Shown one piece after another: positions 22,843 to 53,557 of a stretch of DNA of 53,557 nucleotides. The position numbers and the translations under genes are program-made. Every line of letters starts with the position of its first letter. Position 1 is the stretch's first letter. The notes under the pieces were generated by a model that was not told the origin of the DNA, searched no databases, and worked only from the letters and a program-made list of their open reading frames with translations. Source of the DNA: Trichoplax sp. H2. Lineage: Eukaryota. The DNA lies in NCBI GenBank assembly GCA_003344405.1, contig NOWV01000171.1, positions 1-53,557 on the forward strand, written 5' to 3'.

Positions 22843-23229
22843 GTAAATAATTAAATTTTTTTATTACTTCAAAGCCGATATTTATATATTTTTTTATAGA
22901 AGTTGTAGAGTCAATTTTTGGAGAGAGATGAAGTTTTATAGTATCGGTCAATTTTAATGATCGGTAATGAGTAACTGGATCTAGACTGGTTTATATTAAA
23001 ATACATTATTTCGCATCTACTAGTAGAAATTTAATAGGACTCACATCTATTATTTTACGAAATCATTACAATTTGATTATCTATTCACTAATGTTTACGT
23101 ATATCTATTTTTCTTTCCTGTATGATGGTTCGATCGATAATTTTTTTCAATTCGATGGTCTACTTCTTTGGTTATACCGGTTATTATATCTGGGGACAGT
23201 TATATCGTTTTCTTTCCTGCTATGTATAG

Positions 23230-24106
23230 AGCTTCTATCGGTCGAACTCCTGTTTATCCCACATCGACAATTAGTTGTCGAATCGAAGTTGGGTTACCTC
23301 TATATTTTGGAATAGTCAATATCTATTGCATGACTGTATTAGCGGTGACAAGATACATCGCTATAGTTACGCCGCAGCGTATGATTACTGTGAGGAGGCG
23401 ACACGGAATCTTGATTATATCACTTTTAACTTGGACTTTACCATTGATTTTTACTCTACCACAAATATTTGGTTATTGGGGTGGTTTTAGTTATACTAAT
23501 GGTCTTGGTATATGCCTCGGCGTTTATCATTATAGCCAAGGATTCTTAACTGGTTCTTACTATATATGCTTAATTTTGTTTGTAGTTCAATTTCCGACTT
23601 TAATTATCGGTTGGTGCTATCATCAAATTTACCTTGAAGTGAAAAGAAGCCGTTTGCGTATTAGCCAATTCCGTTCTAGTACCGAACATGATGATCCATC
23701 CGCTTCTAGCCACTCACGAGGAACTAAGCGAAATATAACTATCTCTGGCAATCAAGGAAATCGTTCTAGTAGAAGGCGGGAACCCGAAAATCGAAAAGCC
23801 GAAATTGCTATCGCTAAAACTTTAGTAATTATTTTTGTTACATTTCAAATTTCATTCATGCCCTATAGTGTAGTATCTTTCTATAATTTCATCAGTCATA
23901 CTTCTTACACAGTCTTACTTCAACTTGGCTTACTGTTTGTGACTTACATTGGTAATGTAGCCAATCCCTACATATTTTTATTTCGTAGTGATAAGTTTCA
24001 AAAATTCTGCAACTGGCGTTTAATGAAATGTTGTCAAAAGGGAAGATTTAACACTAAAGTTAGGCCAGTACGTTTACCTGATACTGAGCTTTCATCACCT
24101 TCATAA
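23230..24106 (+). CDS. Orphan class A GPCR, paralog 3, exon 2 (TM3 to the C-terminus: SCRIEVGLPLYFGIVNIYCMTVLAVTRY ... GNVANPYIFLFRSDKF).
   Basis: Acceptor ttctttcctgctatgtatag|A is phase-matched, giving AG+A=Arg. ORF runs to the stop at 24104-24106. Confidence 0.85.
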
Positions 24107-24689
24107 GAAACTGCTTCTGCCCAATTTTTTTCTTTTATCTGAATGATGTATTTATGATTAACCATTTCATTAAACATTCTTTAAGGTGAATATTAGTATC
24201 TCACTCTATGATGAGGATAATAAGAAAGAATTTTATAAATTTACTTTTTTTTTTCGCATTACAACATTATTCATTCTTATCGTAATCTTTAAATCAGGAA
24301 AACATAGCTGCTGTAATTGGTTATAAATTTGTGATATTAATTCACGTAATAGAAAATATCCAACCAATTATAAGATTCTACATTTCATCGTTTAGAAATT
24401 GCTGAAGAGAATATAATTCATTTTTTATTAGGTGCATAATAATCTTTAACAAACTTCTTCAAATGAGAATGTTGATAATAACTTTACTCTTTAAATTGAC
24501 TCATTTACTTATAATCAATTTACCGCCCCTGTAATTTAGGTGAAGATATCATATTATTTAATTAATTGACGATGCAAAATTATTTACCATTACAAAATGG
24601 TGTAAACAATTTATTTCCTTAAATTTTTCTTAGATTTATTAAATTATTTTGTCAGGTTTGATGGTTGGCCTCCATTGGCCTGAAAACTG

Positions 24690-24722
24690 TACAGTGTACA
24701 CTGTATAGTGTACACTGTATAG
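24690..24722. repeat. Perfect 16-bp palindrome TACAGTGTACACTGTA, followed by a tandem-duplicated 14-mer AGTGTACACTGTAT x2. Preceded by TGGCC-TCCAT-TGGCC.
   Basis: Seen directly. Self-complementary. Lies about 0.6 kb downstream of the GPCR3 stop. Confidence 0.8.
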
Positions 24723-34886: not shown

Positions 34887-35274
34887 CTAAAACATTCATT
34901 AACAGTAAATTAAAATAGTTGAAAAACTTGTTTTAAAATGCAGGATTAGTTACTTACGCATTTAATATTTTTACGATACGATTTAAAGATTAATTACTAT
35001 TTGTTCCTCATATCACTACTTTGATATACATTATTTATCAAATAAAATATGACAGTCGTATATAATAATAAGCTTGATTCTGGGTAATTTGGCGTGGTGG
35101 TGTACTATATAACTGTAACGTATATCGAATAATATTAGTTTACAGTCCTTAATCTAGAATACAACTTTTAAGCTTTGGAAGAATTGATAAAAATCGATTG
35201 CAAAGTATGAACCATATAATGCAGTATTTGTTAGTTTGTAGTAGTGGAAAACGTGTCTTATTGATGGAACATAC

Positions 35275-35448
35275 TTGACCATAGGTCTCTGATTCCAAGT
35301 CAACGTCAACAGTTGCTAGATAATCTGGCTTCTTAACATCAGTATTATTATAAATGCAAGGTATATATAGTAATTTCTCTCTAGGACCTTTCATAGCATC
35401 GATTGGTGTTAAGTATCCCGGACCGCAGCTAGAGCAAGCTATAGGCAT
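35275..35448 (-). CDS. SELENBP1: Selenium-binding protein (SBP56/SELENBP1 family; methanethiol-oxidase family), coding exon 1.
   Basis: ATG at 35448-35446. The 58 codons [58 protein letters not shown] align with human SELENBP1 ([37 protein letters not shown]...[18 protein letters not shown]). Donor CAA|GTATGT. Confidence 0.88.
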
Positions 35449-38400
35449 ATTTAAATGGATTAATGATAGTTAGATCATACCATGAGAACAAATTTAATAT
35501 TGTAGTAATGATCAATCTCTGCGTATAACAGATTAAAAATTTAATATCACATCAATAGATTTCCTTCTTATGTACACTTCTTAATTACTTAAGTCAGCTG
35601 TTGAAGTCTAGTAAAATCTTTATTATATTCTTATAATGAGTAAAACTAAGAATGGATCGAAATTGGATCAACGACAGATAATTTTAGCAATTTACTTTGA
35701 CATTTAAAGCATCCAAGTAAATTTATAATTATACATGCGCATATAAAAAATGAAGAATGCCAGCTGTAGGTTAACCTACTTTATGATACATTCATCTATT
35801 TCTTCTTGCTATATATCAGTTCATAGCCTTTACTTGAATCGATATAAAAGTAGATACGCGTGCTAATACTTACGATTTATCAGTGACATTCTATATCATA
35901 AATCACAAGCTTTGTGTAAAATTGATGAATGCTAAAATATGGACTACTGAAATATGACTGAAGTTTTTCATAGTCCGTAGCTTACGATCATTGCTTATAA
36001 ATAATTATATTGAATCTTAAACACCATCTTATTTTAATAGTATTTGTCGCATTATATAAATATAAAAATACGAGAATACTTTGAAATCTTACCCATTTGT
36101 AGATTGAGAGCTAAGATCAATTGATAATGATTCTTCTAGTAAAAATTGATAAATTAGATCCTGTTTGAATAAAGAAAGTTATTTCATTAAAGCTTATATA
36201 TTGTTGTTAAATATCTATATATTATAACGATTTAATTTCAACTTATTAATTCTAGGTTATATTTAAAAGCGAAATGGATTGTATCTATCGATTTATTTAA
36301 ATTTTTGACCACTCAACAACTTCTTATATGTTTAAAATGATATTTCTATAAGCGGAAATTTATTAAAAGTTTGCTTCTGAGACCCCATGATGGTGCCATG
36401 AGGGCGGAAACTTATATCTACTACCCAAACATTCTACAATCTGTTCATGACATGATTAGATGTAAATTTTTTTGAGAAAAGGTCTAAGAATAGCTAGTTA
36501 ACACACATACGTGGTTTATTTCTTCAACGAGGACTCGAAAAGCGTGTGAAAATTCAATCGTGAAACGTACTAAAATCTAGGGTGATAAACGGATGGATAG
36601 CTTAAAGTGAGGAATGAAGAATAGGAAACTGTTGCCCAATTTAATGAATGATTTAAATTAGCTGCTTTTATTTGATAGCAACCAATTTGCAATATGCTTT
36701 AATTGATAAAAGTATCATGAATTTATAATAATCATCATTCCATTTCATTGTTACGACGACTATTACAATCATGGGCTAGATTGTATTTCGCTTATACTTA
36801 TAATTAATTAAACAACGTCGGCTAACCAGCTAGGGGTAAAATACAGTAAATCAAAAATTAGTCAAGATCAACAGAGCATATAAAGAACTATTAAAGTATA
36901 GAGTAAGGACACCTAATAGAGCATTGTACTATCTGCATATTTGTGATCTGATGCAACGGTGCTTTTGTCTCTTTCAATTTTTGAACGTGTAGCAGCATGG
37001 AGGAGCATTGTCTGTCAATCTCCACCCCCTTCCTAATAAATATCTGAAGAGCGGCATGCAGAGTGAAGGAGAATTATCGCAGCCTTTAAGATAAATTAAT
37101 AGTCCAATACTAGCAGATTTTCATTCATGGCCACTATCAAGTATTTGATAGTCGTGCCAAAAGTAGTTAAACTAGAGGCGTACAAGTATCCAAATTACGC
37201 TACCGATATATTGCATAGAAGATTAACAGTGTTGCATTTATATCAAATGTATACCTATAAACTGGGTGAAAGACACTTATACCATATGCTACTATAAAAG
37301 CACAATTGATACAGGAATCATAGAACTGTACAAATATGAAGTAGAAATGTGTAATTGATTAATTTCAAAGTTCCTTTCATTATTAATGAATTATGTAAGA
37401 TGCTCGAGGTCTAAATTTGATTACTATCAGAACTACATTACAGCTTGATGACTTGTATGTTGCAAAGTAGCCTGTCTACTTTGCCCGTAGTAGAAATGTT
37501 ACGGCAGTTTCCAGAATTAAAAAGTAATTCTAGGTATAATCTTGACTATGAACTGCAACTATAAATTGAATCTAAAATCATTTTAGGTTAAACCGGTATC
37601 TAATTATCTAAATTCAAAGTTATAATAATTATATATAAATTATTATTTTATTCTATATTGAGTTCTGTCTCTGTACATGCATGTGAGTTAATTGCTACAT
37701 CCAACTTACCTTACGCGTACGCCAGGCGAAAATGTTGCTCTACTTTCAAAACCCTGTGCTATTATACCTTAAGATAGTAATTGGGTATGGCTTCAAATCT
37801 TGGAATGATCACTTTAAATCGTGATGATGCATTATATGTGCAGTTTACTATGACCGGCATGTGCTAACATGTGATTAGCATAGTAAAATATGATGATGTT
37901 GTAAAGACTAAGCAAATTTATGAAGTTCCTATATGATATTATCATCTTTAACTGCCCATGACAATGCAAAATTTTAAATTTGCATCTCATTATAAATGCT
38001 ATTCTTTGTCAAACAATGCTCGTAGTACATGCCATTTTTAGTGCCTTCTTTTTATTGATGAGGGTTATTGGAGCTTTCCTCCTAGAACTCTGTTCAGGTG
38101 ATCATAATTCTGTGTCTAACAGAGATGCTACCGATAAAACGTGACAAACTCGACTTTGCTAACTATGAATCACCATGTTAATTCTTGTTATTGATTCCTA
38201 TAAAACTCCTCACTTTTCTGTGTTAATATTTGCACGGAAGTTGTTATATATTTGAGAGAAATGCAGCAACGAGTAGGCAATGCCTTCGCACAATAAGAGC
38301 ATATCAAAAAAGTATAATATCAACTACAATACGCTATAGACGTAACCAGATAGATTTTATGCATGCAAAACATCTCAACTTTCGATCGAGAATGCCAACT

Positions 38401-41008
38401 AATGACAGTATGGTGTTGATTTTATTTCCCGTTCCGTTATATATAGTATGCCCTCTGACCACTAGCAACAACAGTACATTCTTAAGGGATGAGATGACTG
38501 GAAAATCATGAAGAAAAAGTAATCCTTCACTTGCAATACAATTTCCACTAATTTTGCATCATCATGTTCTCATATACCATCTATTACAGTCATTAATATT
38601 AAACAGAACAAGATTTACTAAAGCCAGTTTTATTGAATTCTGTATTGATACAATAGCTTGTCTTAAGTCCAACAACGACCCAATTTATTTATTTAATCTA
38701 GACAAATTTAGTAAATAAGTTGATACGCAATCAAAATTTTATTTACAGTACAGTTAGTAAAATGAATAAATAAGGTTGAAGAATCCAGTATGATACCGGA
38801 ATTTAATCTTACAAACCCGTAACTTTGTCTTCATACCGACTAAACTATAGTCATCGAAATAGAATTGCAATGGCTAATGCAAGTGTTTACTTATTTAGGT
38901 CATCAACTACCTTGGAATCCTTTCTGACTTTAGGTTGGGATCTACAGTATTAAATAGACTAAGTATATATATGACATATACATTTCAAAAAGGGGTCCTG
39001 ACAACTAAAAAGCTGGAAGCTACTGTGCTATATTATACGTTTAGATTGAGGATCATTTTATTATTGCCATTCATCATTTGACCTTTGGACGAGTAGCAGT
39101 AATATAAAAGATATTGCATGTGCAACAGTTCACAGTAGCCTTGAGGCCTTAACTTAACAATTATGGTACCATTTACAATATCGTCAGTCTTAATTTACCC
39201 TTTTAGATTCTACAGTAAAAATATCGTTATACAATAAAATTGATAATTTTTAAGAGATACTAACTAATTTTCGTTGAAAAGATTTGAAAATTTATTTGTT
39301 AACCTAAGCATAGCTTCTATTTGATACTACAGTGATAGATGGCAATATTTTATTCATGCATACGTAACATGTACATTTTTATGTACTATGGAAGGTCTGT
39401 CATTATAATCTATTGCTTACCAGTCATAGAAGTTTTAATATTGTAGCAACTATATGTATATCTTAAGGTTTACAAAGATTAAAGCATTTACTACTTTTGT
39501 GCAGTATCTTCATTTCCAGTACCGGTACTTCTTGCAAATCACAATTTACAAGGGCAATTTGACACTACCGATAATTAGCTATTACTTATTTAAAAATTAA
39601 GAGCAATGCGATTACTGTCTGACGGATTCTTTACTTAAACGTAATCCTTTGATTCAATGCATGCAAGCCATGTTTTTATTAATTACCACAGTTACCGCAC
39701 CCTATCGTTTCTATTGACATAAACGTTTAGTAATGCTGTAGAATCCATAAGTACAATATACAATATTCATGACAATAAGTTAACAGGTTGCAAGATTAAG
39801 GCGATATCCCTGTAGAGTAGAGTGCAACAGTTCCATTTTGTACTCAGTTGTTTCGCTTTATATGGTTCCTTTACTACAGCGTATTATTCATTATTGTTGT
39901 TTGAAAAGACTTACTGGTAGAATTTCAAGAAATAATTAATTTTTGATATATTCTAACGGCGAAAAGTTATTATTCGGTAAATCGTTACTCTCAGTGAGTA
40001 AATGCAGTTTCAAAAGTTTCGTTGACTTTGACGAAACACTGTACTTTATCTAGTTAACTGTCACCAGTATATTTACATAACAGTGTGGATATCAGTTATG
40101 TAGTTGTCTATGTAGTATAGATACGCTGTGTATCATACTTATATGCCTATATTTCATTTGCTAGGATTATTATAGAATGTACTAAAGAGTGGGTATCAGA
40201 TTGATCAATCGCAAAATAATCTATGGATAAAATTCTTGAAGACAAATTATTGTAATACATAAAACTACGATAATATCGGCTACCTTGGGCTGACAGCAAT
40301 AAAGATTTCGAATACTTAAACTCTGTAAGAGTATTAAAGCTGCATTCAGTAAGAGTGTATAATAGCTAAATATTAAATTTATTTCATTCAGAATTTAAAG
40401 GAGTACAGTGAAACAGATCAAGCACATAGCAATATAATTTTTACATCCATTGAATTCGAAAAATTCTAGAAGCCTTGGCCACTTCTGCGCTATCAGCAAA
40501 GTCTGGCAAGATTTGATATTTAAAACTATCCTGTTTGTTTTTTCTAACATGAAACTTATATATTTACAGTCTAAACAATGAGTAAGCTATATATATAAGA
40601 CACATATAAAACTGCCTATAAGGATTCAAGATAGACAAGTTATACTACACCATTGAAGGAAGATAAATAGATCAATGCGATAAATGTACAGCATAGTATT
40701 TAAACAATTGACCAAATGCGGTCAAGTCGTTTGCGATTTCTACAGTATTAAGTAAAAAGCTGGGATTGAAATAAAGCATCTTTAATAATACTGCAAGAGG
40801 GATAATTTATGTTTAACATTTGATAATGTACTTCTGTATGAAAATCCCGACAAATAACGACTTACGGAAGAATTGATACAGGTGACATATACTATGAGTC
40901 TTTCGAACCTTTCTTTTTACTCGATTTTTTCAGATTATGATAATTTGGAAGAATTTTAATTAAATACCCCAGCTGGTCATCTTGTTTCTAATGAGTTTGA
41001 GGTTATTA

Positions 41009-41229
41009 TTATACGATCATTGATTGGGTAACACGTCTTATGGAATATGAAATCAGGTCTGATAACACAAAATAGTCGAAACTTACTGAAGGCGTCTCGT
41101 TATGTTGTTTTTGATGACATTCATCACCATATACTATCGTATTCTCAGGTATTGTTTCATTGGCACTTAGTTGACAGTGAGCTCCAATTATGCAGTTGTT
41201 TGTAATTTTCGTATCTCTACCAACGATAG
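41009..41229 (-). CDS. DCTN6: Dynactin subunit 6 (p27) terminal exon (AIVGRDTKITNNCIIGAHCQLSANETIPENTIVYGDECHQKQHNETPS...*).
   Basis: Acceptor atcatcatag. Matches human [47 protein letters not shown] (left-handed beta-helix hexapeptide repeats). TAA stop at 41009-41011. Confidence 0.8.
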
Positions 41230-41463
41230 CTATGATGATTATGCAAAGACGAAGTAGCAATACAATTATGAAAGAATATTGTCTGCCTTTTACATCATAA
41301 CATTGACTATTGAACAGTTTAATATACAGATTGGTTGGCTAAATATTGGCAAAGAAAAATGTTAGTATTTATAAGCGGTAAGCTGTTTGATTATATGTAA
41401 TCAAGGAATTGGTCCCACTTGGAATGAAATGCTAGTACTGAACATATATTTGTTGAGTTATAC

Positions 41464-41511
41464 CTTTGGCTTCGAATGTGTTGCTATTACCAATCTGCTT
41501 AGATTCAATTC
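41464..41511 (-). CDS. DCTN6: DCTN6 exon (R-IESKQIGNSNTFEAK-G).
   Basis: ttttattatacag|GAATTG...CCAAAG|gtataac. Phases 1 to 1. Matches human SQAMKMGDNNVIESKAYVG. Confidence 0.7.
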
Positions 41512-41661
41512 CTGTATAATAAAAGGGTGGTTAAGGGTATAAAAGTATCTAAATCACTACCTTTCAATCGCCTATCACACCGCTTGATACAATTGACTAG
41601 CAATGAAGCAGTTTTACATACAGTACAGACTATAATCAATTACAGTATGTTCAAAGGATAC

Positions 41662-41759
41662 GACATCCAACTTCGAAAACATTGTAGTCTCCGATATGCA
41701 TGGGAACTGGTTCCGGTTTGTCTTTATCCTTCTTTTTTTTTTCATCTTCGGTTAAAAAA
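41662..41759 (-). CDS. DCTN6: DCTN6 exon (S-FLTEDEKKKKDKDKPEPVPMHIGDYNVFEVGC). Contains an A10 run that encodes a poly-Lys insertion.
   Basis: Acceptor gtatgttgcag. Matches human [23 protein letters not shown]. The donor assigned, C|GTATCC (phase 1), is a weak GT. An in-frame TGA follows if the exon is unspliced. Confidence 0.7.
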
Positions 41760-41873
41760 CTGCAACATACGAGTACGTACGTATAAGCACGAATTTCATA
41801 AACAACCCTACGATATATAGGAGTAGGAGTAGCTGATGTACAGTATTTCCTGCATAGTCTATCCAAAACTAAC

Positions 41874-41979
41874 CTATTGTGAATATAAGCTTGCTCTTCA
41901 ATAATATTGTTTTCTCCTATATGGATGGGTCCAGCTTTGGCCATAATAAAAGCTCTAGGGTGAACAACCGTGTTGGCAC
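41874..41979 (-). CDS. DCTN6: DCTN6 exon (G-ANTVVHPRAFIMAKAGPIHIGENNIIEEQAYIHN).
   Basis: Acceptor ttttttttattag. Matches human [34 protein letters not shown]. Donor AG|GTTAGT is phase 2. Confidence 0.85.
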
Positions 41980-42210
41980 CTAATAAAAAAAAAGAAGCTA
42001 GTTCACTTTACCGTTGACAACTGTGTTATTTCGAATATCGTATGATTGGAAAATTGGCTGCCATGATGGGCACTACCGTCTTGAAGTGTATATCCGAGGG
42101 ACATACTAGTACGCTATGCTTGTATCAAGGTAAAGGATTATTTCATTTCTACATCATTCCGTAATAAGGAAATTTCGATATCATTTTATGTCTATCATAG
42201 GATGGCTTAC

Positions 42211-42275
42211 CGATATAGATCTCTCCTTTTAGTTCAGCTTGCTGGCAGACTATTGCACCAGGGGCAATTTTGATT
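42211..42275 (-). CDS. DCTN6: DCTN6 exon (IKIAPGAIVCQQAELKGEIYIG). This is the first conserved coding exon. There is no in-frame ATG here, so the start codon must lie in an upstream exon.
   Basis: Matches human [22 protein letters not shown]. Donor G|GTAAGC is phase 1. The inferred phase-2 acceptor is aatgaaag|A at 42276-77. The open frame upstream contains no ATG; the ORF tool's start at 42343 is TTG. Confidence 0.7.
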
Positions 42276-42789
42276 CTTTCATTGACAAAATTATAATAAT
42301 CAATAAGGATACAAGACGTTCGTTGTCTACCGATGTAATCCAAACGGCTAAAAGAAGCCGTAAAACTAGTTTTAAGGTATATGTGAGCTATACAGTGAAA
42401 TTGAGTAGCTTGATATCATTGAACTATTGTCACCAACATCAATCCATGATCAAAAATACTCGTATGATGGCATTATCATGTCTGCTGCAGACAGTCAAGA
42501 TTTGCCCTTTGCCATGCCATATATAGCTTAATGAAGAGGTACAGTAATTTGTGCGTGTAACATCGATCCTATTTATAAATTCAATAGCGAGGTAGAATCA
42601 AGTGCATAGGGAGATCATTTCGCCTTACTGTGATCTTGAAGACATCCTTGACTTTAAAGCATTAGCAGCCTGTTTGGTAGTGAAATGAAGTCTAGTCGTC
42701 CGGTGATGGATTAATGAATAATAATAAAGGAAAATTAACGCTATGCCACTCTAATAAATTCCCTAATTAATAATGATGTGGAAAAGCGT

Positions 42790-43560
42790 TATGGCTAAGC
42801 AATGCTGGTGTTGGAGGTCCGGTCTTGACTAGATACAGTACCGTACTGAGTCGACTCCACTGTTGTGTACAGTACTGTACTGTAGGGGCGGAATGCCATG
42901 TCCAAATGGACGTCTACTGTAGCAAACAGACAGACGGATGTACGTATTTTGTTGACATACCGGAAATGGTTAATACGGTCAATAGGGGCTTTTTCAACGC
43001 CAATGTTTTCTTCCATAATTTCTTGCCGCGCTTGGCTGTCTGTAGTACAGGTAATAACAACATCCATTTCTTTTCTGCAAATTGACCGCAGTTACAAAGC
43101 AGCCATTGTCTTTTTCTGCGCCGTTTAGTCTCTCCTCTTTGATTCTCTACCGCCATAGTCGTGATTTTCTTCTACTCAAAACATAGTCAAAAGTCGTACT
43201 GTGCGTAGGTTTTCCAGTCGGCATGACTCATACAGTACTGTCTACTGTAAACAAGCGAGTACAGTACATTGTACTGTGGCTGAAGAGGTCCGAGATCGGT
43301 CCATACCGGACTTGACTGCGCTACAGTGTACAGTGTACAGTATGCTGTACTGTAAGTTGGATTGAGGGTGTTTACCAGTACTGTAGTTGAGCACGCTTGC
43401 CATTGCTTGTTAACTATAGATCATAAAGGTACTGAACCGAACCGGACCGGACTCAGGTCTAGTTGGAAGATTATCAATTGGGCTGGGCAGGGAGAAAGCA
43501 ACAGCCCGCTGGCTTACTTTACCTACTTCTACTCGTATACGAAAAGCATTCTTGATTGGA
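42790..43560. promoter_or_regulatory. GC/CpG-enriched island (about 45-53% GC against a background of about 30%). Putative bidirectional promoter between divergent DCTN6 (-) and ADAM10 (+). Carries at least 8 ACAGTAC/GTACTGT palindromic motifs.
   Basis: CCGG and GCGC dinucleotide clusters. ORFs of 76-90 aa on both strands in four frames, as expected where stop codons are depleted. Motif instances at 42834-48, 42867-80, 43231-41, 43257-79, 43322-54 and 43376-86. The ADAM10 ATG follows at 43629. Confidence 0.5.
42961..43067 (-). CDS. Candidate 5' coding exon of DCTN6, or an independent small ORF (MDVVITCTTDSQARQEIMEENIGVEKAPIDRINHF). Speculative.
   Basis: ATG at 43067-43065 inside the GC/CpG-rich island. 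It ends with a strong donor, CG|GTATGT, in phase 2, exactly the phase the 42275 acceptor needs. No homology support. An alternative 20-nt start exon, ATGATAATGCCATCATACGA|gtattt at 42460-42479, is also phase 2. Confidence 0.25.
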
Positions 43561-43628
43561 AGGGTAGAATTCATTAAATTGGAAAAAATTATTCCTCCTT
43601 GTCATCTTCCTGTGCACATTGGTTGCCA

Positions 43629-43689
43629 ATGATGGAGAGCAAGCCGATAATTTTCATTTTAGCTATCGTTTGTATTGGATTTTCGCAAG
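43629..43689 (+). CDS. ADAM10: ADAM10/Kuzbanian-type metalloprotease exon 1: start codon plus signal peptide (MMESKPIIFILAIVCIGFSQ).
   Basis: ATG at 43629. Hydrophobic signal peptide. Donor CAA G|GTAATG is phase 1. The first ATG downstream of the GC island. Confidence 0.7.
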
Positions 43690-44234
43690 GTAATGTTCGC
43701 TTGCACCATTTCATCTTGTCTCGTTGACGCTGGTATCAACGCTAATTAGAATTCTAATCGTTGAGGAACGAATTGAATGAATGTTGTTATTACACCATAA
43801 TCAGCAATTGTCAATCGGGATGATAGCTATCACAGTAATAGTTATCCATGTACAGGCGAAACCAACATCAATTAGTCATGAGATATTTTCTTAACTGATC
43901 TGAATACCATGGTGACCAAAAGAATCGAAAGGGGCTAAATATGGGCCTTCTCCTTTGACAACCCCCCTCTTTCCACACGTATACGACGTGATATTGATCG
44001 TCCCCATTCATGAATTCAATATGGATACTTATCGTCTGCAAGAGTCGAACGAAAATCCCTCACGCTCATCGTACTTCTTCTGCTTGTTGACTGAGTAGAG
44101 AGTATTTCACAGTATTCGTACTTTTAGACGTATAATTTGGATAGGTTACTATGCGTACGTAAACGCTAATAGCGCATGGGCGTGCACTGCAATTACTTAG
44201 CAGATAGATCCATCTTTGTTGCAATATGAACTTC

Positions 44235-44564
44235 TATCCTATTGCTCTACCCTGAAAGGATGCTATCGATCTGTTAGAGTACAATCATTTTTTCCTTTGA
44301 TTGAATTCGAACGTGATAGAAACCTCTCAATAATGCCATCATCATATCTTACCATTGCCTACCCTGAAAGGATGCTATCGATCTGTTAGAGTACAATCAT
44401 TTTTTCCTTTGATTGGATTCGAACATGATAGAAACCTCTCAATAATGCCATCATCATTTCTTACCATTGCCTACCCTGAAAGGATGCTATCGATCTTTTA
44501 GTGTACAATAATTCAAACGTGATATAAACCTCTCAATAATGTCATCATCATTTCTTACCATTGC
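44235..44564. repeat. Tandem repeat (minisatellite), 112-bp unit, about 3 copies. The third copy carries an internal deletion of about 19 bp. Lies in ADAM10 intron 1.
   Basis: Unit ctaccctgaaaggatgctatcgatctgttagagtacaatcattttttcctttgattgaattcgaacgtgatagaaacctctcaataatgccatcatcatatcttaccattgc starts at 44247, 44359 and 44471, with a few substitutions. Confidence 0.85.
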
Positions 44565-45118
44565 CTTTGATTTTACGTACATTCATTCGCAATCGGAGGG
44601 TTAGTGGCATGATGACTCGCAGTGCTTGTTTATTCGTAACGCCTGATCCTAATTGCTTAACGAATTGATGCAGAAAGTAATGTTGTAAGACAAAGAAATA
44701 ACTTGTGTGAAAAACCTGATCTAAATCATCGACTTCATGCTGTTTATTGGGTGTCGCCGCGACCATCCATATCATTTTTACCCAGAAATTGTTGAGGCTT
44801 CAACTCCTATTTATACAGTATAGTATAAACTGTAGTGGTTCTATTTTTATTGGTAGCCGCTGAGGCTTGAACTGAACATAGGAATAGCAAGATTTCTCAT
44901 ACAGTAAATAATAAATAAATAATATCCTGAAGTGAAATGAATCAGTTTATATAAAAACCTCACGTCATCATCAGAAATTACCCAGGAGAGAAAGAAGTTA
45001 CTGTATTGTTGGCTGCTTTAACCTAGAGTGATACATTAACAGATTGATATGTTGTAACTGGAATCATGTGTATTTGTAACATTGAATATACTACAGTAAT
45101 AATTTTTACGTTTTGTAG

Positions 45119-45257
45119 GTTTCCAATCTTTGAGTAAACATATCGGCCGCTATGAAACGCTAGTTTATGACAACGAAGAAATTAATAGACGTCACCAAGA
45201 AGTAAAAAAACATAACGTTAAAATGGCGTTATCGCTAGCGTTCACCGCTTACAAACG
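45119..45257 (+). CDS. ADAM10: ADAM10 exon 2 (prodomain: FQSLSKHIGRYETLVYDNEEINRRHQEVKKHNVKMALSLAFTAYK).
   Basis: Acceptor ttttgtag. Matches human [29 protein letters not shown]. Donor CG|GTAATT is phase 2. Confidence 0.8.
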
Positions 45258-45466
45258 GTAATTTAATAGCTAGTTGTTTAAAATTGATTCTGTTCTTAAG
45301 ATTCAGCGATTGCACGTTAAATAGAGGTTTTATTTCATTAACTGAATCAGCTTTGTAGTTTAGATGGTCTGATCGTTGTTATTATCTACCGTATTTATTC
45401 TCTATATATCTGCTGCTCAGTACCAACTGAATTGATAACTTACTGAGCTATTTCTAACTGTGGCAG

Positions 45467-45588
45467 GCATTTCCATCTTCATCTTGTGAGGGATACAGAA
45501 ACTTTCACGCCTGATTTCACTGCTGTTGATGAAACACATCAAAGAATTGATTATGACTTAGCCAAGGTATATCGAGGATACTTAAAGG
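45467..45588 (+). CDS. ADAM10: ADAM10 exon 3 (RHFHLHLVRDTETFTPDFTAVDETHQRIDYDLAKVYRGYLKG).
   Basis: Acceptor ctgtggcag. Matches human [41 protein letters not shown]. Donor G|GTAAGT is phase 1. Confidence 0.85.
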
Positions 45589-45914
45589 GTAAGTTAAAAT
45601 AAGCTTACGTATATTATTGGTTTCGCCGTTATTTGTTATGTTTGTTTGAAATCGCATTAATAATAATCCCAATTTTCACGGGGATGAGTACTAGTTTTAT
45701 TTTGTACCATAAAGACTATACTGTATGTATTACGTAGTCTGATCTAGAAGGGAATTAACTGCTCATGTACTGCATGTGCAAGCGGTAGCAATGGCTACTT
45801 CATTTCCTTAGAGTGTGTCATTTTTGTTATATTGGTATTTGGTATTACAGTATAAAACATCAGATAATAATGAATAAATCTCAGGGTATACATTGTAACA
45901 TATTTTGTTCGTAG

Positions 45915-46080
45915 GTGAAAAGAATTCTGCTGTATACGGAGTTCTAAATAATGGCGTTTTTTATGGCAAAATCTACCACAATGACGAAGAATATTATCTC
46001 GATCCTGCTGAGCATTACTTTAAGAAAGTGCCTTTCCATTCAGTTATATACAAGGGAAGCGACATACACTATAAGCATCA
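45915..46080 (+). CDS. ADAM10: ADAM10 exon 4 (EKNSAVYGVLNNGVFYGKIYHNDEEYYLDPAEHYFKKVPFHSVIYKGSDIHYKHQ).
   Basis: Acceptor ttgttcgtag. PFHSVIY is identical to human ADAM10. Donor CA|GTAAGT is phase 2. Confidence 0.85.
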
Positions 46081-46179
46081 GTAAGTTTTTCATCGACGTT
46101 TTACAGTATAAAATATTCTTTTGAAGAATTACAGTTACTAACCATGTTTTTCATTTCGACTCGCCTAACAACTAAACAG

Positions 46180-46432
46180 AGGTGGAAATGCCACATGTGG
46201 GCATAATAATTGGCGCTTAGTTCATCCGGATTATCAATTATGGCATCATGGCATCATGTCTAAAAGTAGCAGAACTGAGTCCATTTCAGCATCATCCGCT
46301 AATAGGAAGAAACGAAATGTGCTCAATTCTAATGCAGATTCTTGTCAAATTCAAATGGATGCCGATCCTTACTTTACGCAACAATATGGAGGGAGAATAC
46401 AAGCTGTTGATAGATTGGTACTGCATGCTCAG
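46180..46432 (+). CDS. ADAM10: ADAM10 exon 5: end of the prodomain with a cysteine-switch-like GGNATCGHNN, the furin site RKKR, and the start of the catalytic domain.
   Basis: Acceptor aactaaacag|A is phase-matched. Translation ...SANRKKRNVLNSNADSCQIQMDADPYFTQQYGGRIQAVDRLVLHAQ matches human [46 protein letters not shown]. Donor CAG|GTATTA. Confidence 0.8.
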
Positions 46433-46533
46433 GTATTAAATAACCGTGAAATGAATTTCACATGTAAATATTTTGCGTCTGTGCAATTTATGACTGTTCT
46501 GCATAGGTAAATAAGACTTTTCACTTGCATTAG

Positions 46534-46684
46534 GCTGCAGATTTAATGTATAGAAGAACAGATCTTGACGGTGACGGGGTGACTGATAATGCAAGGATTA
46601 AAGTCAAGAAAATGCGAATATATACGACTGTCGATAAAAACAATGTCTTGCACAATAATAATCTTGGAGTCAATGCTTTGTTAA
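46534..46684 (+). CDS. ADAM10: ADAM10 exon 6 (AADLMYRRTDLDGDGVTDNARIKVKKMRIYTTVDKNNVLHNNNLGVNALL).
   Basis: Acceptor cttgcattag. Matches human [40 protein letters not shown]. Donor A|GTATGT is phase 1. Confidence 0.8.
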
Positions 46685-46844
46685 GTATGTATAAAGTTAT
46701 TTTATTCAAGAGTAATTATAATTTATTTATGCTTACAGTTACGACCTAAAATTTGAAAAAATTTCTTTCCTAATACAGTAGTCGCCATTATTATTGTGCA
46801 CTTTACTATGTTGCTTGTTAAGCCAATTTTTTTTTGTATTTCAG

Positions 46845-47095
46845 AGCTCTACTCGCAAAATAATTACAATGAATTCTGTACCAGCTTTCTATTTACCTAT
46901 CGCACTTTCCAAAATGGAGTACTAGGATTGGCCTATATTGGGTCAATTTGTAATATCTACGCTTTTACTGCCGCCAATACCCAACAAAGCACAAATTGTG
47001 GATTAGTAACAACACAAAATTCTGGTGAAGCAGTTCCACTTCGTGCTTCTGAAGTTACTTTCGCTCATGAATTGGGACATAATTTCGGTGCCCAG
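46845..47095 (+). CDS. ADAM10: ADAM10 exon 7: catalytic domain including the zinc-binding site HELGHNFGAQ.
   Basis: Acceptor tttttttgtatttcag. Translation ...NEFCTSFLFTYRTFQNGVLGLAYIGS...EVTFAHELGHNFGAQ matches human [25 protein letters not shown]...HITFAHEVGHNFGSP. Donor CAG|GTACGG. Confidence 0.9.
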
Positions 47096-47332
47096 GTACG
47101 GAACTTGAAATGGATAGATCCTACAAATTTTCTATTGATAGCAAGCTAGTAATTAGTTTGCTATCATGGTATAACACAGATCCAACTATAACTAGTACAA
47201 CGACAACATAACGTTGTAATAAATGTTCGATTATACCCGTTTATTGCATTCCTAACTTCTACATTGTACTGTATTATTAACTACAGCTGCTTTTAGTGCT
47301 ATAAAAATCTTATTGTGTGAATTTTTCTTTAG

Positions 47333-47507
47333 CATGATAACACCTATACAACCCAAAAATCATGCTATCCTGGTGGTCTGGATGGAAACTATATTATGTA
47401 TGCATATGCTACTACTGGTAACTTAAAGAATAACAACTTTTTTTCCAGCTGTAGCAGAACTGCCATGACTAATGTTTTACGTGTAAAGGCTGCCTCATGT
47501 TTCAAGG
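47333..47507 (+). CDS. ADAM10: ADAM10 exon 8 (HDNTYTTQKSCYPGGLDGNYIMYAYATTGNLKNNNFFSSCSRTAMTNVLRVKAASCFK).
   Basis: Acceptor tttttctttag. Completes HExxHxxGxxHD. NGNYIMYA and NNN-FS-CS are diagnostic of ADAM10 rather than ADAM17. Donor G|GTTAGT is phase 1. Confidence 0.9.
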
Positions 47508-47651
47508 GTTAGTATAATGGTTTTTTTGTACTTTATAATTTTAGTTTACATTGCACTTTAACGAAGCGATATAATCACACCGTATCAGCCAGACTCGTAC
47601 AATTGTACGTGGATATTTGTATGTATTCCTAAAAATATTTTTACTATGCAG

Positions 47652-47793
47652 CTAGTACTGCGTCAATTTGCGGTAATGGCATTGTTGAAACTGGCGAAGA
47701 TTGCGACTGTGGTGCTCACTGTGATATTGACAAATGCTGTAACCCGGCTGGTAGTACAAATCAATGCAAATACGCAACTAACGCTCAGTGCAG
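47652..47793 (+). CDS. ADAM10: ADAM10 exon 9 (disintegrin domain: ASTASICGNGIVETGEDCDCGAHCDIDKCCNPAGSTNQCKYATNAQC).
   Basis: Acceptor ttactatgcag. Matches human [45 protein letters not shown]. Donor AG|GTTAGT is phase 2. Confidence 0.9.
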
Positions 47794-47873
47794 GTTAGTA
47801 AACCTATTTTGAATATTGACATTACTCTACTAAAGTTATAATCTTTACGCTGACATGCTGTTAATTTTAATAG

Positions 47874-48063
47874 CATCTCCAACGGTCCGTGCTGTAACAA
47901 TGCTACTTGTCAAATTAGACCTGCGTCTGACAGTTTCGTTTGCCGTACTGAAACAGATTGCGCTAGCATCTCTCGTTGCAGTGGATCTGTAAACTGTCCT
48001 GCTCCAACAAATAAACCAGATAGAACTAGATGTAACAAAAATCAAAAGCTCTGTTCCAATGGG
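47874..48063 (+). CDS. ADAM10: ADAM10 exon 10 (SISNGPCCNNATCQIRPASDSFVCRTETDCASISRCSGSVNCPAPTNKPDRTRCNKNQKLCSNG).
   Basis: Acceptor ttaattttaatag. Matches human [64 protein letters not shown]. Donor GGG|GTAAGA. Confidence 0.9.
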
Positions 48064-48172
48064 GTAAGAAATTGTTTATGCATCCATGACAAATACAACT
48101 TTTTAGAATGGTATTTGTCGCGATTAAATAAATTGTAATTTATAATTGTTATTACTCCTCTTGTTATTGTAG

Positions 48173-48664
48173 GAGTGCACTTTATCTCTTTGTGAGTTGC
48201 AAAACATGGCAGAATGTAAATGCTCTAGTTCAAGTGAAGCGTGTCATCTCTGTTGTCAATCAAAATCTGGTGGAACTTGCATATCCACTTATACAATGAC
48301 TACTCTTTTCAATAAAACTAATGTCCCGCCTGGTACCTCTTGTGCTAATATGACTGGATACTGTGACATCTTTAGCAATTGCCGGCAAGTCAACGAAGCT
48401 GGACCTCTATCTACGTTATTGAATATAACAACTCAACAAGTTTTGGATTGGGCTGCAAGGAATTGGTGGATTATATTATTAGTTTGCTGTTCGGTAGTGC
48501 TCGGTTTTGCGATATTTATTCGCTTTGTAGCACCATTGATACCATCTGATAACCCAGGACGCATAGAACCTATTGCATGCGGCTGCTGTGGCTGCAGTAA
48601 TCAGAGAAAGAAAAAGAATCCAGTGGCAATAGCTGACGACAACATTAATGACCAAAGAGTATAA
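48173..48664 (+). CDS. ADAM10: ADAM10 terminal exon: Cys-rich region, TM helix (WWIILLVCCSVVLGFAIFIRFVA) and a short 41-aa cytoplasmic tail.
   Basis: Acceptor ttgttattgtag. ECTLSLCELQNMAECKCSSSSEACHLCCQSK...SCANMTGYCDIFSNCRQVNEAGPL...NWWIILL... matches human [24 protein letters not shown]...[24 protein letters not shown]...AHWWAVLLMGIALIML. TAA at 48662-48664. Total CDS is 2142 nt, 713 aa. All phases are consistent. Confidence 0.9.
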   Translation, partial: ECTLSLCELQNMAECKCSSSSEACHLCCQSKSGGTCISTYTMTTLFNKTNVPPGTSCANMTGYCDIFSNCRQVNEAGPLSTLLNITTQQVLDWAARNWWIILLVCCSVVLGFAIFIRFVAPLIPSDNPGRIEPIACGCCGCSNQRKKKNPVAIADDNINDQRV

Positions 48665-49519
48665 AGTTTCGTAATATATTTATAATGCTATATTTAGGTG
48701 CATGAAAGTTTCAGGGTTTACGATCATGCAGCAAATGCATTTGTTCGCTTATTTGGATAAGGTATACTATAATCATTTATAACTAAGTAATATTATTGAT
48801 GTTTGTTTGTGCACTTCATAATGTGCACGCTATAGAACTCACGTGTACGTAAAACCTAATTTTATACAGCTGTGAATATATATTATTAATCGCAGATAAA
48901 GACTTGATTGAAATCATTTAAATAAGACGTAATTAGGTTTTTATATTAAATTTATGGTCGACTCTTTGCCAACTCTGTAAAGCTGCATTTACATTATAGC
49001 GATATAGATTAATGCCAAGAATTTACTAGAATTGGTATAAATCTTGCATAATATTGGATCGCAACTATTTTACACTGTGGACTTGAAGACTTTGGGCATT
49101 ACATTTTAATGGAGTTAGCAAATGTTCCAGTTATATCTGTAGACATATTCTACGTGCACTTTCTCAAAGTTTCATTACTGCATGTTCTTCGTTGTATTTT
49201 CGTATGATATTTATATAGGCAAGCCCAAGTCAACGTATGCTAATACACATTTATACTATGCCATCACTCGTTATCCTTATTTTTGTCAATGTATTGTTAG
49301 TGTTTTTGTAACTAAATTTCGTAATTTTAATTAATTCATCATTGATGACATACTTCAATAAATTGACTAAAAATTCATACGAACGTGGAAGGCCAAATAT
49401 TTTGTTTATGTCGGGGCGAAAGACTGATAACATTTATTTAGATAAGATATTAGCCAGTGTGGTTATAATTATTTGTTGAATAGCTGTATACTTTAAATCA
49501 ATTATTTATTAACTGTACA

Positions 49520-49610
49520 CTAGTTTTTTTGAAGAGAGTCGAAATGTAATCGCATCATATATTCAAAATCCCTGTAACTGACTCTGCCATCTTCATCAAA
49601 ATCGATATTC
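49520..49610 (-). CDS. Calcineurin-B-like EF-hand protein, terminal exon (NIDFDEDGRVSYRDFEYMMRLHFDSLQKN*). This is the C-terminal EF-hand loop.
   Basis: DFDEDGRVSYRDF fits the 12-residue EF-hand loop (DxDxDGxVxxxD+F). It aligns to calcineurin B ...INADKDGDGRISFEEF.... Acceptor ctttgacccttatgaaactag|G is phase 2. TAG at 49520-22. Confidence 0.5.
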
Positions 49611-49807
49611 CTAGTTTCATAAGGGTCAAAGAATACATCAGTATTGTATAAGGATATTTATGATTATGACTAGTGAATACAGTGATATAATAATTATTGT
49701 TAACGACAGCAGATTTACTTGTAATTTTATTATTATTATTGGCTTCCAAGATATCTACATATATATGGGCCGATACTCAATTTATTATGTTACTACGTTC
49801 ATTTCAC

Positions 49808-49944
49808 CTAAAAATGGACGTTACGGTTGCCTTGGAAATCCTTGGAGCCACTTCATCGAAGACCGACATGAGATCGCTAAGTGTCAGAAACCCTCGACCT
49901 ATGGTACAGAATAAATGTATATAAGTCATAAACTCTTGGCTTAT
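49808..49944 (-). CDS. Calcineurin-B-like protein, penultimate exon (ISQEFMTYIHLFCTIGRGFLTLSDLMSVFDEVAPRISKATVTSIF-R). The 5' boundary is uncertain.
   Basis: Donor TTTTTAG|GTGAAA is phase 2, which matches the terminal exon. ...ISKATVTSIFRNIDFDEDG aligns with calcineurin B QIVDKTIINADKDGDG. The phase-0 acceptor gttaag at 49945-46 was chosen to match the upstream exon. An alternative acceptor, ccatag at 49899-900 (phase 1), would give exon 49808..49898. Confidence 0.3.
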
Positions 49945-50695
49945 CTTAACGTATATAGCTACGTCTGTTATTACTTCTAAATTAATTTACTTAATAAAAA
50001 TTGTTATCCACAATAGACATATGAACATCCTTCACGGAGAAGTTTGCCTTCTCTATTCAATATTGATGTAGCAACATCATGCATCATATTGACGAACTGT
50101 AATTGTATATCTAGGGAAGTTCATAAATGTGAGTTGGCTCTTCAGTTTACATTCGATAAGCTACGGTATCAATAAATTCTAGTTGAAAGCGGAACACTGT
50201 AAAATTTAATACTCGTATATATTCATGAGGCTAAAAACTAACTAACTATATGTACTTACAGTGGGCGTCAAATGACATAAAAATATCCTTAATTTTTTCG
50301 TTGATATTGTACTCTTGCAATTTTGTAATAAGTAAGTCTTCACAAGCACTGAGTGAAATTCCTGATTAAGAAAGTAGATAAATTTATTGGTACCCCGTCG
50401 TTGAAATGTTAATTTATTAAATAAATTGATATCTACAAGGCGGGAAAGTTACCGTTAAAATTAAATTCGGGCGATAATAACTTTTCTAGTTCTCCCTAAT
50501 ATGGGTAAATTTGAGAAGAGATTACAATAGTAAATTGAACGACGGACTGTTTGCTGATGGAACTTGAGCAAACAAACCGTTATATTTATATTATTCAAGG
50601 CCACATTAAATCTTATTACAAGCTAAAGCTGATTACCATTTTAAATCGGAAAACGCATTTTGCGTATAAAAAGTCAGTTATATCATTTATCTTAC

Positions 50696-50791
50696 TTTAT
50701 TGGATTTATATCCCAAGATCGCAACCATAGCGACTTGAAGGTCATCGATGGAAAGGTAACCCTTTTTATCGGCATCGCATTGAGAAATAAT
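50696..50791 (-). CDS. Calcineurin-B-like protein exon encoding an EF-hand (IISQCDADKKGYLSIDDLQVAMVAILGYKSNK).
   Basis: ctttaatgcag|ATT...AATAAA|GTAAGA. Phases 0 to 0. Aligns with calcineurin B [29 protein letters not shown]. Confidence 0.5.
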
Positions 50792-51543
50792 CTGCATTAA
50801 AGATTCATTAATTCGTAAGGGTATGTCGTAGCGATAAGTCAACTGGTTACAAAATGAAGGAGTAATTTATAATCATGCACAGCACAGTAATAGTCTCGTC
50901 GATACGTAGCAGCAGACTAGAATCGATTAGATTGATGATGCAACTGGTGCACAGCACGTAAGATATGAGTAGACTTTCGGTACAATATGAAACTATAAAA
51001 TTATACAGATTAACAAACCCTTATGATGAAGGCAAAATGCTAAGGTACAGGTCTGCCATTAAGATACGATGTACGCGTATGCGAGTATTTTATCCTTAGT
51101 GCTACTACTATACACTAGTGATTCAGGAAGTACATTCTGCCTAGTAAAGTACAGTGTAAATACTGGCTTAGTAGGTGATACGGCGAATATAATCTACCGT
51201 CATCGATTTGGCAACTAAGAAAATCAACTCACAATGTCTAACCTTGTTGTAGCAGTACAGCATCATTATTTAATGTAATCCTGCATAGAGTAACGCATAA
51301 TATAATTCTGTACTTTATTGCACGTCGGTAGTGATGACTGAAAATAATCCCTAGTGTAGGTGAGTTGTATTATTCAATCACAGTAATGATTCAATGATAT
51401 GATATACATTTTATATTATACAGTTTGGTTTAAATTTCTTAATTTCATCAAAGATGCGTTCATCTTCCATCCTTATTTAATTCATATAATACACTGATTA
51501 ATAGTCCTTAACATCATCGAAGATATTGATGAGTTCATCTTAC

Positions 51544-51641
51544 ATCCTTAATTCTTCGCTTATCGCTATGCAGTTCGTTAAGTTGATCTTCTTGGTCAAT
51601 TTCTCGGACAGCAGTCATACTGTAATTGCCAATCAATCTCA
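51544..51641 (-). CDS. Candidate upstream exon of the same EF-hand gene (RLIGNYSMTAVREIDQEDQLNELHSDKRRIKD).
   Basis: ttatttgcag|TG...AAGGAT|GTAAGA. Phases 1 to 0, compatible with the exon at 50791. ...DKRRIKD|IISQCDADKKGY parallels calcineurin B [17 protein letters not shown]. Homology is weak. Confidence 0.35.
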
Positions 51642-53557
51642 CTGCAAATAATAATTTAATAACTACCGCATAATCTTAAACTTCAAATCCCATAATAAGA
51701 TACAAAAAATACTGGTCGGTTCTAATCAGATTCTACTGCTTTTTATTGCACTTGATGATTCTCATTGACTTCAATGATTTGCCTCTGCAGTAATCTACAG
51801 TAAGTTGAAGAACCTCAGGCAGAAGATGTACTATGAATCTGTGATCACTATTTCAAATTTAAATTTAGTAAATGAACTTAAACTTAATATGTTCTCTCCC
51901 TATTTACTGTTAATTTACTGCTCGTCGTCAGGTGAAAGAAGTACTGAAAGTTTACTCAGCGCTGATAGAAAATAATAATATGTACGGCAGCCGGATGACA
52001 TTGGCTAGAGGCCACTGCAGCCAGACACTATGCTAAAGTATAGCACTGTGCATCGCATACTGTACCGTGGAGGGAGTGGTGTAAAGTACTGAGTCAACAG
52101 TACAGGTATAGTGTTTTAGTTATCTAGTAGTCCATATCGAAAGCTTTAGATCGTGCGAAACAGAGGTTATTATTATACTGTATATTTAAAATTTCTGGTT
52201 AAAAACCCGTTAACTCTATTTAGCTGTTGGATTAGTAGTGAAATAGAGCATACATATATATATATGTTACGGCCATTCCTAAGAGTGATTTTGTTCTTGA
52301 GATATATACTGTACTACATACACAATGTATATACGTACTATCGCGTTAATATGGTCTGATATTTTAACTAAGATTAATCAGGTAAAGTGTATATATTATA
52401 CGCTCACAGAGAAATCATTTTAACGTTATAGAAGATGATAACATTTAATATCCACTACTGAAACCAACAGAAAGCGGTTATTTACGATTGTAATCATGTA
52501 ATACATCTGAAGGACTGTTTCAGCAAAGAGTTTAATGCAAAATGAACGGGGTACATAGGATCGCCCACTGAGTATATAGTAAATAGTAAATAATTCATAA
52601 GAAGAGTTAGCCATAATTTTTAGCTCCCATGCTTTTTACCCGTATTAGAAATTTCATAGAATTTCGGTACCAAGACTTGGAATTTTACTATAATTCATTC
52701 GAATTAGAATTAGTTCCACAGATAATCCTAGCTCGTACCTTTACTTAAACTTACACATGAGGATGGACATGACTAGTGAAGATCATTTTTTATTCTGCAT
52801 CATTACCAAGATTACAAATCCATGATCTTTATACAATTATGCAATAAGTAACGTCGTCACCGTCTTCGATAAAAACATGAACACTTGTATCAACTTTCAT
52901 TGTAATTTCAAACTTAAAATATTAACCGATTGTCCATGTTAATAGTTATGATATTTTAGTATAAACTTTACAATCATTTGTGCAAGAAATCAATTATAAT
53001 AATATATATATATATATTACTTCAACGGATTATACCGGACATGTTCAACCAAAGTTTTTAACTATACCATGCTTACATTTACATAGCTAGAATATGGCGA
53101 TTTTTGTATTCTATACAAATATATTACTGTTTAGTTTCGGAGGCATTGAAATAACCAATAAAATGATTCAGTGCATTTCTAAACATAAAATGTGTGTAGT
53201 ATGTATGTATTATGATTAGCTACATAATAAGATAACGATGAAAAAGCTTCTTAGTCATAAAGAAGCATGTAAGTGTTGCTGTGTCAGCTAGGTGTTGCAA
53301 GGATACAAATACATGTCTGTAAGACACTCAATGCCTTAATGTTACAAAGTACAGTACTGCGCTGAGTCTATCTATACATATAAGTACAGTATATACAAGC
53401 TAGAAGTAAGAAAAAATCCGTTGAATACTACGAATGTAATATCGCGACGTAAATAAAATCTTCTTATCCAGAAAATTAATCAAAAATGCCTTGAGATTTA
53501 AATAAATATTTGTAGCCAAAAAATCATAGAATAATGATATTACAATTTTTAAATCCT

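Follow-up and report, generated by a model that had tools for sequence, protein, structure and literature searches.

In the placozoan Trichoplax adhaerens, about one third of the genes (~3,000 housekeeping 'GP1' promoters, a class that includes intracellular trafficking genes) take part in promoter-promoter loop hubs (Kim et al., Nature 2025, PMC12221973). The GP1 promoters have ATAC and H3K4me3 peaks. The motif enriched at the loop anchors is contained in the terminal inverted repeats of Mutator elements, and orthologous promoters of four placozoans have kept it; targeted integration of Mutator into active promoters is offered by the same authors as an alternative (PMC12221973). A passage in another study, PMC12817080, describes this anchor motif as a transposon-borne ACGG repeat. 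That study (the Chimaera model, Nucleic Acids Res 2026) presents a deep-learning model of Micro-C contact maps, with motifs confirmed by in-silico insertion, and links repeating ACAGT to insulation in T. adhaerens; the motif is reported to drive the insulation predicted in Micro-C maps, which in this species is expected at gene starts. The public Micro-C data for the species are available as GSE260572. In-silico insertion of the M1BP motif also shifts the T. adhaerens predictions, because of a shared 4-nucleotide (nt) pattern (PMC12817080). Most regulatory elements of placozoans have been placed at promoters or in first introns (Najle et al., Cell 2023, PMC10580291). Here we describe a 771-bp GC-rich island at positions 42790-43560 of a 53,557-bp stretch of Trichoplax sp. 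H2 DNA (contig NOWV01000171.1, the window in what follows), which lies at the 5' ends of the divergent genes DCTN6 (minus strand) and ADAM10 (plus strand) and holds a dense array of near-palindromic TACWGTAC units (W, A or T). The array is real and far beyond chance expectation, has a counterpart upstream of a second gene and does not differ between two haplotypes.

The array and its recurrence

The island contains 17 copies of ACAGT or ACTGT (ACWGT). The longer forms ACAGTAC/GTACTGT and TACAGTA/TACTGTA (TACWGTA) are each present in 11 copies, and the remaining 52.8 kb of the window hold 15 copies of the former and 40 of the latter. In 2000 dinucleotide-preserving shuffles of the 771-bp island, TACWGTA reached a mean of 0.29 and a maximum of 4 copies, and ACWGT a mean of 3.5; for neither was the observed count attained in any shuffle (0/2000 in both cases). 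No other 771-bp interval in the 53.5 kb has more than five copies of TACWGTA. Outside the island the 40 copies are not clearly enriched over the 25-35 expected under Markov models, so that within the available DNA the motif is not equally frequent everywhere, and the excess over chance claimed in an earlier note on this DNA is borne out. The strings singled out in that note are likewise in place: GTACAGTACTGTAC at 42867-42880, ACAGTACTGT at 43232-43241, ACAGTACCGTACTG at 42835-42848 and TACAGTGTACAGTGTACAGTATGCTGTACTGTA at 43322-43354.

The cores fall into two clusters, neither of which is assigned to a strand. Cluster 1 (42834-42922) comprises six ACWGT cores, including TACAGTACCGTACTG and the 5-bp-phased TACAGTACTGTACTGTAG, and lies in intron 1 of DCTN6, 40-126 nt past the exon-1 donor. 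Cluster 2 (43196-43386), located between the two start codons, comprises eleven cores with interleaved orientations and includes ACAGTACTGT, TACAGTACATTGTACTGT, (TACAGTG)x2-TACAGTA and TACTGTAG. Adjacent units are often phased by 5 bp (TACAGTACTGTACTGTA) or by 7 bp (TACAGTGTACAGTGTACAGTA), with spacings of 5, 5, 5, 7, 7 and 7 bp. The majority of the motif copies are dispersed; the output of Tandem Repeats Finder is limited to two micro-arrays, one of period 5 at 42866-42884 and one of period 7 at 43322-43341, each 19-20 bp long. Positions 42834-42844 read as a composite, ACGGTACTGTA, of the type ACGGTACWGTA; this composite has two copies (42834 and 52058), against ~0.04 expected.

Alignment of the 17 sites gives the consensus [C/G]-T-ACAGT-A-C, which we write as [C/G]TACAGTAC. 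T precedes the core in 13 of the 17 sites, compared with 51% of 198 background sites; A follows it at +1 in 14/17 (41% in the background), and C stands at +2 in 11/17 (19%). The flanks are constrained beyond the ACAGT core. The resulting unit, TAC-W-GTA, is its own reverse complement apart from the central base. Of the candidate transcription-factor families, probably none fits TACWGTAC: presumably neither DMRT (ACAWTGT, with a different core) nor OVO (ACNGTTA), MEF2 or Myb is a match, and the steroid-receptor motif, ACAnnnTGT, has the wrong spacing. No steroid-type receptor is known from Trichoplax, and the GTAC-binding SBP domain of plants is not known from animals.

Our sample amounts to ~80 kb of Trichoplax sequence and includes one extra locus, L002 (scaffold DS985255.1), obtained through a search for paralogues of G-protein-coupled receptor (GPCR) genes. 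At this locus the motif recurs directly upstream of the HAUS1 start codon (L002 2330-3100), with five copies of TACWGTA against 0.34 expected, six of CTACAGT against 0.19 and nine of ACWGT against 2.5; 0/1000 shuffles reach any of the three counts. The HAUS1 copies are isolated and non-tandem, spaced by 60-120 bp, and a TACAGTG lies ~26 nt 5' of the start codon. At 51.9-52.35 kb of the window, upstream of an EF-hand gene, there is a weaker cluster that includes ACGGTACAGTA together with a CCAAT box. The AT-rich region upstream of the selenium-binding-protein gene contains no TACWGTA motif. In this small sample the motif tracks some promoters and not others.

Several further occurrences of related sequences were noted in the sampled DNA. 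Isolated copies of the two-unit form TACWGTACWG are found at 14048, 38744, 41619 and 53350 in the window and at 4817 and 5422 in L002, about once per 7-10 kb, where base composition predicts ~0.6 in 80 kb. A further ACTGT array, ACTGTATAGTGTAC, occupies 24686-24723 (period 14, 2.7 copies). A GPCR gene lies ~600 bp upstream of this array, and the surrounding AT-rich DNA has no obvious promoter island. L002 contains a 126-bp satellite at 15372-15760, each unit of which carries GTTACTGTACTGTAAC and which runs into an assembly gap. The same locus has facing ACGG-rich termini at 3922-3943 and 3996-4014 (CCGTTCTCCGTCCGTCCCTGG and CAGGGACGGGCAAAACTGG), separated by a 52-bp AT-rich spacer; the pair lies ~1.6 kb upstream of HAUS1, within an unannotated stretch of 3 kb that is rich in GC. 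These termini may be the ends of Mutator-like elements of the kind reported with the 'ACGG' motif at placozoan loop anchors.

Positions 35219-53557 of the window align to the H1 reference (L001, DS985241.1:8809390-8832828) with 98.99% identity. Over these 18.3 kb the alignment contains 132 mismatches and 19 gaps, or 151 difference events (0.82%), and the counterpart of the island is found at about 8.817 Mb of DS985241.1, around positions 8,816,960-8,817,730. Proteins encoded in the window are of the H2 type: DCTN6 reads GYLIKILP, compared with GFLIKILP in H1, and one GPCR is 100% identical to the H2 'moody' model. The window is accordingly distinct from the H1 reference and stands for an H2-like haplotype or assembly. 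All 17 ACWGT cores are identical between the window and H1, and the arrays are free of indels. The interval 42170-43685 is the least diverged 1.5 kb of the alignment, with three differences against a mean of 12 (lowest 0.1%).

The promoter island and its genes

The island common to DCTN6 and ADAM10 (42790-43560, no strand assigned) has a mean GC content of 45%, against a window average of ~31%. The earlier note had put its GC content at about 50%, a value reached only in the best 100-bp bin (51%), and had called it a CpG island, a label that does not hold. Vertebrate-type CpG islands have GC >50% over at least 200 bp, whereas here a single 100-bp bin reaches 51%; the CpG observed/expected ratio of the island, at 0.82, lies below the 0.94 of the window as a whole, and since there is no CpG-depleted background, the interval is a GC-rich island rather than a CpG island of the vertebrate type. 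Strings resembling GC-box, ETS, CCAAT and YY1 sites can be read in it, as putative sites, from the letters alone. No Rfam family or tRNA was found inside the island. A sub-threshold Rfam match to mir-1 at 40125-40201 on the plus strand (24.1 bits against a gathering threshold of 45.6, E = 0.15) lies just past the 3' end of DCTN6, outside the island, and is probably due to chance.

DCTN6 was identified by tblastn and homologues on the minus strand at 40.9-43.0 kb. The peptide DSQARQEIMEENIGVEKAPIDRINHFR is present in the Trichoplax sp. H2 DCTN6 model RDD38562.1, and the 5' exon is therefore placed at 43039-42961 on the minus strand, with the start codon at 43016-43014 (MEENIGVEKAPIDRINHFR) and the donor gtatgt following CCG. 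Intron 1 spans 42960-42348 (613 nt). A 1-bp indel relative to H1 at 43049, just upstream of the exon, suggests that the sequence upstream of 43039 is non-coding. Exon 1 of ADAM10 (43629-43689, plus strand; MMESKPIIFILAIVCIGFSQ) encodes a signal peptide and ends in AAG before the donor gtaatg. The gene model that we built for ADAM10 on plus-strand sequence at 43629-47500 agrees with T. adhaerens TRIADDRAFT_52298 at 100% identity over the shared part, matches the H2 model RDD38558.1 (which begins MMESKPII) exactly in its first 439 residues, and contains the Reprolysin and ADAM10_Cys-rich domains. Both gene identities proposed earlier are confirmed by these matches.

The two start codons, at 43016 (minus) and 43629 (plus), are separated by 613 bp. 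Bidirectional promoters are defined by divergent 5' ends less than 1 kb apart, and both first exons are backed by H2 gene models; the interval 42790-43560 is, as far as this gene arrangement indicates, the shared promoter of the divergent pair, as had been proposed, with transcription start positions that we infer. The further claim that the island sits exactly between the divergent start regions stands for cluster 2, but not for cluster 1, which lies in DCTN6 intron 1, nor for the first coding exon of DCTN6 (43016-42961), which is inside the island. Both genes are presumably housekeeping or broadly expressed.

Beside the ACAGT runs the island carries a second short element, GGAGGTCCGGTCTTGACT at 42813-42830 (no strand assigned), with related copies at 43285-43317 (GAGGTCCGAGATCGGTCCATACCGGACTTGACT) and, inverted, at 43429-43462 (GTACTGAACCGAACCGGACCGGACTCAGGTCTAG). 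The element reads GGTCCGG...CTTGACT or ACCGGAC, and every copy adjoins an ACAGT run (direct repeats D2, D3 and D8). ACCGGAC/GTCCGGT occurs six times in 58.7 kb: five of these occurrences are at 42698-43447, in or beside the island, and the other is at 53034. It may be the putative site of a second factor. An ACCGGAC-type stretch also forms a 5-bp-phased run, AACCGAACCGGACCGGAC.

The existing models of both genes differ at their 5' ends. The H1 models of the Joint Genome Institute lack the first exons (DCTN6 TRIADDRAFT_18676, 176 residues and marked 'partial'; ADAM10 TRIADDRAFT_52298, 658 residues), and the H2 model of DCTN6 (307 residues) has an extra upstream exon, probably spurious, which stems from ADAM10 intron 1 read on the minus strand (44775-44560). 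The regions concerned are 42347-42209, 43039-42961 and 43629-45260 of the window and 5673-7055 and 10001-13439 of L001. Intron 1 of ADAM10 contains a 112-bp tandem repeat at 44241-44513 (2.4 copies, 95% matches), and this stretch accounts for most of the differences from H1 seen locally. A scan of metagenome contigs for orthologous loci yielded no relative of DCTN6. Elsewhere in the window, three paralogous genes for rhodopsin-type GPCRs lie on the plus strand (7608-8627, 13439-15697 and 22589-24103). Their mutual identity is 32-34%; each seemingly has a small upstream exon and one large exon, and they have very few database relatives.

A probable binding platform and alternative explanations

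We consider it fairly probable that the array is a multivalent binding platform for an architectural or promoter factor and is connected with the insulation and the promoter hubs reported in placozoans. The island would then be a nucleosome-free promoter shared by the divergently transcribed DCTN6 and ADAM10, and the TACWGTAC units would form a multivalent array of binding sites, with the 17 ACWGT cores divided between the intergenic cluster and the cluster in DCTN6 intron 1. The factor would probably act as a dimer, as the earlier note had proposed, because each unit is near-palindromic. Dense occupancy would keep the promoter open and would create local insulation or promoter-to-promoter contacts, as in the Micro-C maps at placozoan housekeeping promoters. 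Protein binding, its dimeric mode and the effects on transcription and three-dimensional (3D) contacts are what we infer. The arrangement in two clusters, one at the promoter and one in the first intron, matches the reported distribution of placozoan regulatory elements (PMC10580291).

Several points weigh against this reading. The published ACAGT motif derives from the interpretation of a neural network applied to contact maps, not from biochemistry, and repeated ACAGT could mark promoters without causing the insulation. The recurrence of the array comes from ~80 kb and only two or three promoters. The 771-bp island taken alone has 3 differences from H1 against 6.3 expected, which is not significant, and H1 and the window have diverged too little for constraint on the motif copies themselves to be shown.

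The alternative that survives best, and which we still regard as unlikely, is that the units are passive, functionless transposon scars in open promoter chromatin, either chained Tc1/mariner footprints or eroded terminal inverted repeats of Mutator-like elements. TACAGTA and TACTGTA, with 11 exact copies in the island, are identical to the canonical excision footprints of Sleeping Beauty (Tc1/mariner). Given a footprint of the form TA-C(A/T)G-TA, repeated insertion and excision at each new TA would give TACAGTACTGTACTGTA, and positions 42868-42884, which read TA-CAG-TA-CTG-TA-CTG-TA, can be taken as three chained footprints. Random footprints should, however, be mostly singletons, and isolated TACWGTA is not clearly enriched outside promoters. 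The constraint extends to bases beyond the footprint (C/G at -2 and C at +2), the variants TACCGTA and TACAGTG are non-canonical as footprints, and the two haplotypes do not differ in copy number or sequence. The 80 kb, a small part of the genome, yielded no element that combines TACAGT...ACTGTA ends with extended inverted repeats. As to Mutator, the targeting of active promoters was raised by Kim et al. (PMC12221973), and the inverted pair of ACGG-type termini upstream of HAUS1 is in keeping with it. The island itself, by contrast, has no clusters of ACGG/CCGT, and the ACGG terminus of the L002 type has no match in the window. No Mutator insertion was found in the island promoter, where the inverted repeats consist of the motif itself only, and comparison of the island with other repeats in the 80 kb returned matches of motif length only.

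The arthropod initiator element is TCAGTY, and ACAGT contains its CA(+1)GT core. The copies on both strands could accordingly be dispersed bidirectional start sites rather than the sites of a separate factor, an account that we find quite unlikely. CAGT matches 4/6 positions of the Drosophila consensus, both orientations are interleaved in cluster 2, and the TACAGTG ahead of HAUS1 would give a plausibly short leader. Yet cluster 1 lies inside DCTN6 intron 1, and starts in cluster 2 would burden the leader of DCTN6 with three upstream ATGs, at 43156, 43105 and 43065. The constrained flanks (T-A before C, A-C after T) also misfit the initiator consensus, and the orientations are not sorted toward the respective genes.

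It is highly improbable, in our view, that the array is neutral simple-sequence DNA, that is, a decayed microsatellite of 5- or 7-bp period, (GTACW)n or (TACAGTG)n, present in the promoter by chance. The two micro-arrays at 42866-42884 and 43322-43341 would agree with such an origin, as would the similar array of 14-bp period at 24686-24723, in DNA that does not look like a promoter. The tandem parts, however, cover only ~40 of the ~280 bp of the clusters, and the other copies are dispersed among unrelated spacers. The arrays show no length polymorphism between the haplotypes, although the alignment has 19 gaps elsewhere, and the copies upstream of HAUS1 stand singly rather than in tandem. Barely credible is a hairpin (also suggested in the earlier note) or cruciform element that would mark the promoter by DNA structure rather than protein recognition: the units are self-complementary and several inverted-repeat pairs measure 15-22 nt, but any array that repeats a palindromic unit is trivially self-complementary, the perfect palindromes of 10-14 bp have no loop, and the two clusters, folded as single-stranded DNA, do only slightly better than dinucleotide shuffles (z = -1.81 and -2.07, with 12/200 and 7/200 shuffles folding as well).

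The binding-platform reading has a bolder form, which we consider a long shot. The arrays would be docking sites of a placozoan-specific architectural protein, similar in role to CTCF or BEAF-32, and would be distinct from the Mutator-borne ACGG motif; they would have been born as chained Tc1-like footprints (TA-C(A/T)G-TA) in open promoter chromatin and later co-opted. If this were true, a 3D-genome code would owe its origin to transposon scars and not to transposon sequences.

Chromatin loops between promoters run into the thousands in placozoans, and no architectural protein is known for them. The locus described here is compact, with 17 near-palindromic units in ~550 bp, does not vary between haplotypes, and is free of the transposon repeats that confound other anchors; it therefore offers a clean bait for DNA-affinity proteomics or DNA affinity purification sequencing (DAP-seq) to find the factor. 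It also suits deletion of the motif, as a test of what insulation, looping or bidirectional transcription may owe to it. The value of the locus is one of anatomy and testability rather than of discovery.

Comparison with described systems

The locus resembles the CpG-island bidirectional promoters of vertebrates in that two divergent genes, with start codons within 1 kb of each other, share a GC-rich interval with putative GC-box-, ETS-, CCAAT- and YY1-like strings. It differs from them in lacking the contrast of CpG depletion (0.82 against 0.94) and in its GC content of only 45%. In Drosophila, BEAF-32 (clusters of CGATA) and M1BP (Motif 1) act through clusters of short motifs at housekeeping promoters, often between divergent gene pairs, and these elements couple promoter activity with insulation. 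The Trichoplax motif differs from both in sequence, and the likeness would be a functional analogy only. With the footprints of Tc1/mariner (Sleeping Beauty) the array shares the same 7-mers, and it is set apart from them by its constrained flanks, its clustering at promoters, the lack of enrichment of singletons and the lack of a parent element in the ~80 kb.

Closer to hand are the systems described in placozoans themselves. Like the GP1 hub anchors, the island is a promoter, presumably of housekeeping type, with a dense motif, and the function of DCTN6, a dynactin subunit, fits that class. If their motif is the ACGG repeat, as PMC12817080 states, the Trichoplax island differs from them in that no ACGG array was found in it; nor was a Mutator-like terminus or a target-site duplication. 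The nearest relative is the ACAGT motif of PMC12817080, which comes from the same organism and has the same core in repeated form (17 ACWGT in 771 bp, against 3.5 expected). Novelty is limited because this motif class is already in the literature, where it is uncharacterised: one sentence and a logo are devoted to it there, and no locus, extended consensus or factor is named. What is new here is a well-resolved instance with an extended consensus: the unit is resolved as [C/G]TACAGTAC, phased by 5 or 7 bp, and is placed in a bidirectional promoter and a first intron that are both defined.

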